Source of the DNA: Octopus vulgaris
Taxonomy: Eukaryota
Direction: 5' to 3'
Assembly (NCBI GenBank): GCA_951406725.2
Contig: OX597832.1
Coordinates: 64,852,001-64,916,000 of the forward strand
Length of the DNA stretch: 64,000 bases
Positions 20,811 to 21,332 of this stretch are shown piece after piece; position 1 is the first letter of the stretch; each line of letters begins with the position of its first letter. Below the pieces are notes generated by a model. The model was not told where the DNA came from and ran no database searches. It worked only from the letters and a program-made list of their open reading frames with translations. The translations under genes were made by a program, and so were the position numbers.

Positions 20811-21029
20811 TGTGTGAGAGAGAGTGAGGGAGAGAGAGAGAGAAAGGGAAAATTTTAGGTCAGTTAAAATGTCTGTGGCATATTTTAACTTCTAAATACA
20901 AATTCACTATACAAAATCTCCCTTATGGTAAAATGTACAAAAACACTAGCGGCTCAGTGCTTCCCTCTAGCGGATTTCTAGAGGTGAGTTTTTGGCAAAT
21001 TGAATCTGACCAAGGTTATCTCACTTCGA

Positions 21030-21080
21030 TATTCCCCATTGAGAAAGGCTAAAGAGCCAGAAGCTTGCATCAGAGAATCC
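21030..21080 (+). ncRNA. Degenerate minimal type I hammerhead ribozyme motif
   Basis: ATTCCCCA-TTGAGAA-A-GGCT(AAAG)AGCC-A-GAAG-CTTGCA-TC-AGAGAAT. U3/A8 replaces C3/G8, stem II is intact, A15.1 is mutated. Confidence 0.5.
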
Positions 21081-21332
21081 GATTAACGGAAGCACTGGGC
21101 ACATAGGGTATTTTCACATCTTTTACCACAAGAGAGAAATTCTTTGCCACAGTAACTACAGTAAATTTGTCCCAAAATGTGTCCCAAAGAGATTTTAACA
21201 TATTTTAACCTGAAGTTCGTTTGTTCTTCATAACTGCTTGGCGCTGACATTGCTATTTTTGCTCTGATGTTGACTTTTTTCATATTTCTATTTTTATTGA
21301 TAAACCTACGGCTTTGAATCTGCTCTCTTCGG

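Follow-up and report, generated by a model that had tools for sequence, protein, structure and literature searches.

The inverted heads of two hammerhead loci in Octopus vulgaris are probably second, 5′-truncated arms of the insertions themselves, made by a Penelope-like enzyme that primes reverse transcription from both cut ends of the target. The loci lie in a window of 64,000 nt (the whole stretch of DNA analysed; contig OX597832.1, positions 64,852,001 to 64,916,000), and both are likely to be decayed insertions of a non-coding hammerhead tandem repeat. An inverted arm was found in 109 of 251 distinct loci of this repeat, all of them back-to-back and none convergent, and the arms bear a one-sided tail. 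These features uphold two suggestions of the initial annotation, namely kinship with the inverted pseudo-LTRs of Penelope-like elements and a layout that records integration. Its further proposal, that the self-cleaved RNA end served for priming or fold-back, found no support, since the inner ends pass the cut site without stopping.

The tandem period is ~331 nt in a majority sequence built from related loci, which is itself ~3 nt short at +177 (+1 is the first base 3′ of the NUH site). As recognized by a sequence pattern, each unit carries a minimal type I hammerhead with a 6-bp stem I, a 4-bp stem II and a palindromic stem III, and a long stem-loop with an AC-rich loop is predicted at +100 to +146. 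Three hammerheads, all on the forward strand, are found in the window, and two of them have core changes. Hammerhead 1 (21030–21080, core 21039–21045, predicted cut between 21071 and 21072) is decayed, with GAAA changed to GAAG and the first stem I pair broken. Hammerhead 2 (21333–21383, predicted cut between 21374 and 21375) has an intact C3-G8 core at 21342–21348 and weakened stems. Hammerhead 3 (63574–63625, core 63583–63589, predicted cut between 63616 and 63617) has a mutated GAAA strand and, from its sequence, is likely to be inactive. The window ribozymes folded as monomers no better than shuffled sequences, as expected of motifs that are minimal and decayed. Rfam gave 199 matches; the 150 of them listed were microsatellite-driven miRNA and snoRNA matches and included no hammerhead. 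Stop-to-stop frames at the loci were low-complexity or antisense only, and no ORF with reverse transcriptase (RT) plus GIY-YIG was found there.

The inverted copies reported in the initial annotation are real at both loci, with 75–78% identity to the forward unit, far above shuffled sequences. In local alignments, the reverse complement of 20863–20996 matched 21056–21199 at 100 of 129 positions (score 73.5, shuffle maximum 32), and inverted 63144–63275 matched 63298–63445 at 97 of 129 (score 65.5, shuffle maximum 35.5). At locus 1, the inverted arm (20851–20996, reverse strand) covers −16 to +148 of the unit, and its outer end is the short, tail-less terminus adjoining a GA microsatellite. The forward arm (21000–21451) starts at −72, spans a single unit shortened by internal deletion to a period of 303 nt, and breaks off at +86 of the following unit; with its 3′ end truncated, it cannot be scored for a tail. 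At locus 2, the inverted arm (63111–63295, reverse strand) covers ~−47 to +185, lacks the ribozyme core through an internal deletion, and bears the ~36-nt tail (63111–63147, unit ~+150 to +185), which is on this arm only. The initial annotation was right to place an inverted copy here, but ended it too early. The actual outer limit of ~63111 was read by eye for the outer 10 nt, while the automatic call was 63121. Most of the 22-nt "spacer" at 63276–63297 is antisense to the 5′ arm of the ribozyme, whose core is missing. The forward arm (63298–63757) begins at +1, contains one unit (319 nt) and stops at ~+151, the short terminus, beyond which lies a TATC microsatellite. A third, diverged solo fragment of the unit (34704–34831, reverse strand, ~+10 to +138) has neither a ribozyme nor an inverted arm. 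Contrary to the claim that the heads begin at the predicted cleavage site, the locus 1 head starts at −16, within stem II, and the locus 2 head at −47. The locus 1 forward arm starts at −72, and only the locus 2 forward arm starts at +1. The long hairpin that had been proposed to enclose the first ribozyme is predicted at both loci (−99.8 kcal/mol, z −5.2 at locus 1; −74.7 kcal/mol, z −6.1 at locus 2). The locus 1 hairpin alone encloses a ribozyme, the 3′ half of which would be paired away, and the loop of the locus 2 hairpin contains none.

The genome is 2.8 Gb and rich in microsatellites, which swamped the repeat search of the whole window. Within the window itself, 9400–11540 is ~2 kb of nearly pure TA/TG microsatellite, and GC content is 12% at 10001–12000. 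One search of the genome gave 1816 first-look candidate copies of the unit. From 316 fetched loci and two segments cut from the window, we removed 67 duplicates, which left 251 distinct loci, three of them from the window. The inverted head, which the initial annotation had expected in most copies, is widespread, but just over half of the loci (142/251) are single-orientation with no inverted arm. The inverted share was similar by every sampling route (41/109, 16/35, 19/35, 17/37, 9/21, 19/41 and 5/9), of which the pattern-picked set of 109 is the most neutral. The median arm is 214 nt and the longest 1216 nt. Microsatellites adjoin 121 of 271 3′ ends compared with 23 of 271 distant controls. 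Target site duplications (TSDs) of at least 9 nt were found in 4 of 79 inverted loci against 1.5% of controls, and they are mostly undetectable. A different dispersed repeat of ~430 bp adjoins many copies in either orientation (L012, L042, L065, L068, L105, L116, L152 and L201).

The copies fall into two subfamilies that differ at 27 sites, and they are ~12% diverged from their subfamily majority. The core is mostly U3·G8 in one subfamily and U3-A8 in the other, the latter being a described Penelope hammerhead variant in the part of PMC4209133 available. Among 210 copies that span the ribozyme, the core is intact in 85, mutated in 89 and gapped in 36. The 3-8 pair is U-A in 72 copies, U·G in 67 and C-G in 12, and stem I is 80–91% paired. 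Stem pairing mostly reflects conservation; covariation is seen only as one-sided changes and at the 3-8 pair. In subfamily A, the core is mostly U3·G8 (67 copies) and not C3-G8 (12 copies); cleavage by the wobble core is putative.

Where the arms stop inside the unit was then compared with the ribozyme cut site. Junctions were placed with subfamily profiles; because the copies are so diverged, only 84% of the calls fell within 3 nt in simulation. In 214 inverted arms from outside the window, 204 stops were counted, a rate of 0.70 per 100 nt. The inner breakpoints cover the whole unit, and termination is near-flat across the cut. The clustering at the NUH site that the initial annotation predicted was not seen: only 1 of 108 passes stops at +1/+2, where 1.5 are expected and where arms anchored by the cut-spanning search pattern were left out of the count, and the 95% upper bound on passes stopping there is 5%. 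One arm lies within 5 nt of the cut in 13 of 107 inverted loci, and both arms do so in none. If the self-cleaved RNA end primed the inversion, through fold-back or a template jump, breakpoints would lie at the NUH site. This would agree with the +1 start of the locus 2 forward arm, with L294 (+1 or −1) and with a raw excess of stops at −5 to −1 (10 vs. 3.7 expected). However, the aligner inflates this bin 1.8-fold in simulation, and after correction the excess is 10 vs. 6.6 (P = 0.14). The excess came mainly from the discovery set (8 vs. 2.4) and did not replicate (2 vs. 1.1). Moreover, the bin includes the NUH itself, and thus templates ending there had not been cut there. Over the wider interval of −10 to +5, there are 15 stops vs. 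11.0 expected overall, 12 vs. 7.0 in the discovery set (P = 0.054) and 3 vs. 3.4 in the independent replicate. Together with the window heads, neither of which starts at the cut, these counts largely refute cut-site priming as a general rule, and we regard it as very improbable; as a minor route, it could account for less than ~5% of arms. Internal deletions, CpG decay and aligner bias explain an apparent cluster of breakpoints at −3/−2.

Elsewhere in the unit, 5′ stops are in excess at +21 to +40 (42 vs. 23.2 expected, P = 3e-4, or ~0.004 over 15 bins, post hoc). This excess occurs in inverted and in single copies (5 vs. 2.4 in the replicate), and it lies just upstream of a 5-bp hairpin at +36 to +49. 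In addition, single-orientation loci (for example, L099, L229, L263 and L224) show a mild excess of 5′ ends at +140 to +162 (12 against 6.0 expected; P = 0.02 for this bin among several), which gives single copies of nearly unit length.

The outer ends are fixed points. They cluster at ~+149–155 and +176–190, just 3′ of the stem-loop at +100 to +146, and the ~36-nt tail is the interval that separates a long end from a short one. The tail was scorable in 55 of the 109 inverted loci, the other 54 being not classifiable, and it stands on exactly one arm in 47 of the 55 pairs vs. 27.5 expected (P = 4e-8). The remaining pairs are alike at both ends, five with two short and three with two long. The tail was also one-sided in 9 of 10 freshly fetched loci.

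We considered whether the inversions arose after insertion, by repair or local rearrangement, or are artefacts of assembly. The copies are old and lie amid microsatellites, and among the assembled public contigs searched, none spans locus 1; one, from a run of putative RNA origin, covers 21149–21384 nearly identically. However, all 109 inversions have one polarity, and their outer ends are fixed and their tails asymmetric; furthermore, the two arms are only ~80% identical to each other, unlike an assembly echo. The single polarity and the end statistics refute this reading, and its probability is negligible. In the same region (21149–21343), two public contigs are nearly identical to the window but have 8 extra nt at ~21171–21173, indicating that the window copy carries a recent or polymorphic deletion.

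Priming at both target ends by a Penelope-like enzyme, the reading that we favour, would proceed as follows. Each target 3′-OH would prime first-strand cDNA, with one start site per side just downstream of the AC-rich stem-loop. First-strand synthesis from each 3′-OH would account for the back-to-back layout, in which each arm is antisense DNA growing inward from its flank, and one start site per side would account for the tail asymmetry. The template would likely be an uncleaved multimeric or a circular RNA, since the arms run through the cut site unhindered and are up to 1216 nt long. Each cDNA would end at random, at ~0.7% per nt, and the inner ends of the two cDNAs would likely be joined via microhomology of 1–4 nt. 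Where only one side is primed, a single-orientation copy would result. The ribozyme would likely act at another step, such as the making of an RNA circle, and not at the inversion point. Overlap between the two arms is seen in 46 of 47 pairs. Inverted arms have no excess of stops at the upstream priming sites expected under strict one-molecule twin priming (7 vs. 8.9 and 5 vs. 7.9). Thus, two units or two RNAs would be needed.

At the junctions, 17 of 42 gap-free cases have microhomology of at least 2 nt, whereas the share among 679 simulated blunt joins is 11% (P = 3e-5). Of the 63 loci scorable for subfamily, 56 have both arms from the same one, and private variants are shared between arms at 1.77 vs. 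0.97 per 100 sites. Age, and not a common template, could account for the agreement in subfamily. Such microhomology and common variants fit fold-back equally well and do not discriminate it from two cDNAs. In fold-back, a cDNA or an antisense RNA would fold at a short palindrome and copy itself, and the outer ends would be set by later endonuclease processing; the microhomology is readable as such a palindrome, and fold-back has been argued from junction palindromes in PMC3846280, in the part of that article available. Since a copy is never longer than its template, the arm with the tail should then extend further 5′, a relation seen in only 18 of 47 pairs. Loops are no smaller than when arms are paired at random, with 11 of 109 at 15 nt or less where 8.5 are expected (P = 0.23), and the arms have no more variants in common than tandem units do (1.77 vs. 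1.69). Arm lengths are uncorrelated; a correlation that was apparent at first was not borne out. Simple fold-back therefore fits worse than priming at two ends, and fold-back with later end-trimming is possible, although we consider fold-back on the whole unlikely.

In another reading, each locus would be a truncated stump left independently by an autonomous Penelope-like element and not a copy of a propagating non-coding unit. Their end structure is that of autonomous elements, and the median arm is short (214 nt). However, one and the same linker between units, from the tail to the next ribozyme, was found in 81 of 251 loci, with both subfamilies represented, indicating that the 331-nt period has spread as a unit. 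Moreover, 92 of the 251 loci have an arm longer than one period. Among the flank comparisons listed, there was no coding continuation and no longer continuation common to the flanks, and no protein match was found in the 50 GIY-YIG loci compared. We therefore regard the stump reading as quite improbable.

A candidate source of enzyme is present in the genome, which contains many GIY-YIG elements. Several of them have 781-aa frames, and the one tested encodes an RT with a C-terminal GIY-YIG. No autonomous partner of the unit was found among them: it had no match by blastn (E ≤ 1) or tblastn (E ≤ 0.01) in 50 partly overlapping GIY-YIG loci, drawn from 150 scored of 6136 candidates. A young element with GIY-YIG and RT (L347:1245–3587 and L348:1239–3581) is represented by many uninterrupted 781-aa frames genome-wide. 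In another young case, a GIY-YIG element has inverted arms of 766 bp that are 100% identical (L349:821–1586 vs. 3218–3983). Other type I hammerhead-like motifs, mostly with U3-A8 cores, lie near GIY-YIG frames (L326:2204, L328:2662, L335:21 and L364:999); the hammerhead-like motifs in the GIY-YIG loci are unrelated in sequence to the 331-nt unit.

In LINE-1 twin priming, two cDNAs are made from the two target strands and are joined back-to-back by microhomology. The LINE-1 arms derive from stretches of a single RNA that do not overlap, and annealing of the second primer is a matter of chance. The octopus repeat differs from LINE-1 in that both starts are fixed and the arms overlap in nearly all pairs.

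The inverted-head layout itself is already known for Penelope-like elements, and the octopus heads are likely to be an ordinary insertion footprint. In the parts of PMC8557442 and PMC3846280 available, Penelope-like insertions have an inverted 5′-truncated copy and a tail of 30–40 nt on one end. Similar to the endonuclease-positive insertions described there, the octopus loci combine a partial tandem with an adjacent inverted 5′-truncated copy, head-to-head (5′-to-5′), and they also have a minimal hammerhead in the repeat, microsatellite-rich flanks and microhomology at 5′ joins. In contrast to Penelope-like elements, the octopus repeat has no ORF, and the whole element is the 331-nt period. 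Rotifer Penelope-like copies have TSDs of 8–10 bp in the same available text, whereas TSDs are mostly undetectable in the octopus repeat. The origin of Penelope inverted arms and tails was termed unresolved in the accessible parts of PMC8557442 and PMC11167929, and neither an end count of this kind nor a twin-priming model for Penelope-like elements or retrozymes was found in the open-access literature searched.

The closest biochemical parallel is Poseidon of Anolis carolinensis (PAc). As far as the available part of PMC11167929 goes, two RT start sites bracket the PAc tail, extension takes place on both strands of the target, and mutation of the ribozyme does not abolish insertion, so that ribozyme cleavage is not needed in vitro. 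Similar to PAc, the octopus repeat has two end sites that bracket the tail near an AC-rich stem-loop. The PAc start lies within the stem-loop, ~85–92 nt past the cut as computed from the numbers in that article, whereas the octopus ends are just 3′ of the stem-loop, at ~+150 and ~+185. The choice of PAc start site did not depend on the strand in vitro, whereas the octopus asymmetry (47/55) implies a different site on each side.

By layout, the octopus repeat fits the non-LTR retrozymes, judged on sequence features: its units are non-coding, tandem, within ~150–400 nt and dispersed, each with one type I hammerhead. Animal non-LTR retrozymes, in the accessible text of PMC7229834 and bioRxiv 10.64898/2026.07.22.740005, are likewise non-coding tandems of ~300 nt with one type I hammerhead per unit and low GC, dispersed as monomers to trimers in genomes that also have autonomous Penelope-like elements. 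The available main-text parts of the two sources contain no discussion of inverted arms, and those of the preprint do not mention a "tail" either. Unlike the retrozymes described there, the octopus copies are old and have a minimal, Penelope-type ribozyme (U3-A8, U3·G8 or C3-G8 core). The available part of the preprint derives retrozymes from Penelope pLTRs, and the enzyme that moves animal retrozymes has so far been inferred from co-occurrence and homology. The ends of the 251 copies add useful evidence that retrozyme-type repeats use Penelope machinery, and they give testable numbers (a single start on each side, passage of the cut without a stop, a join by short microhomology). Tentatively, animal retrozymes may ride on Penelope machinery whose enzyme uses a different RT start site on each target strand and copies uncut or circular RNA. 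If so, such fixed-site twin priming would explain both the inverted arm and the one-sided tail, two features that the octopus repeat has in common with Penelope-like insertions.
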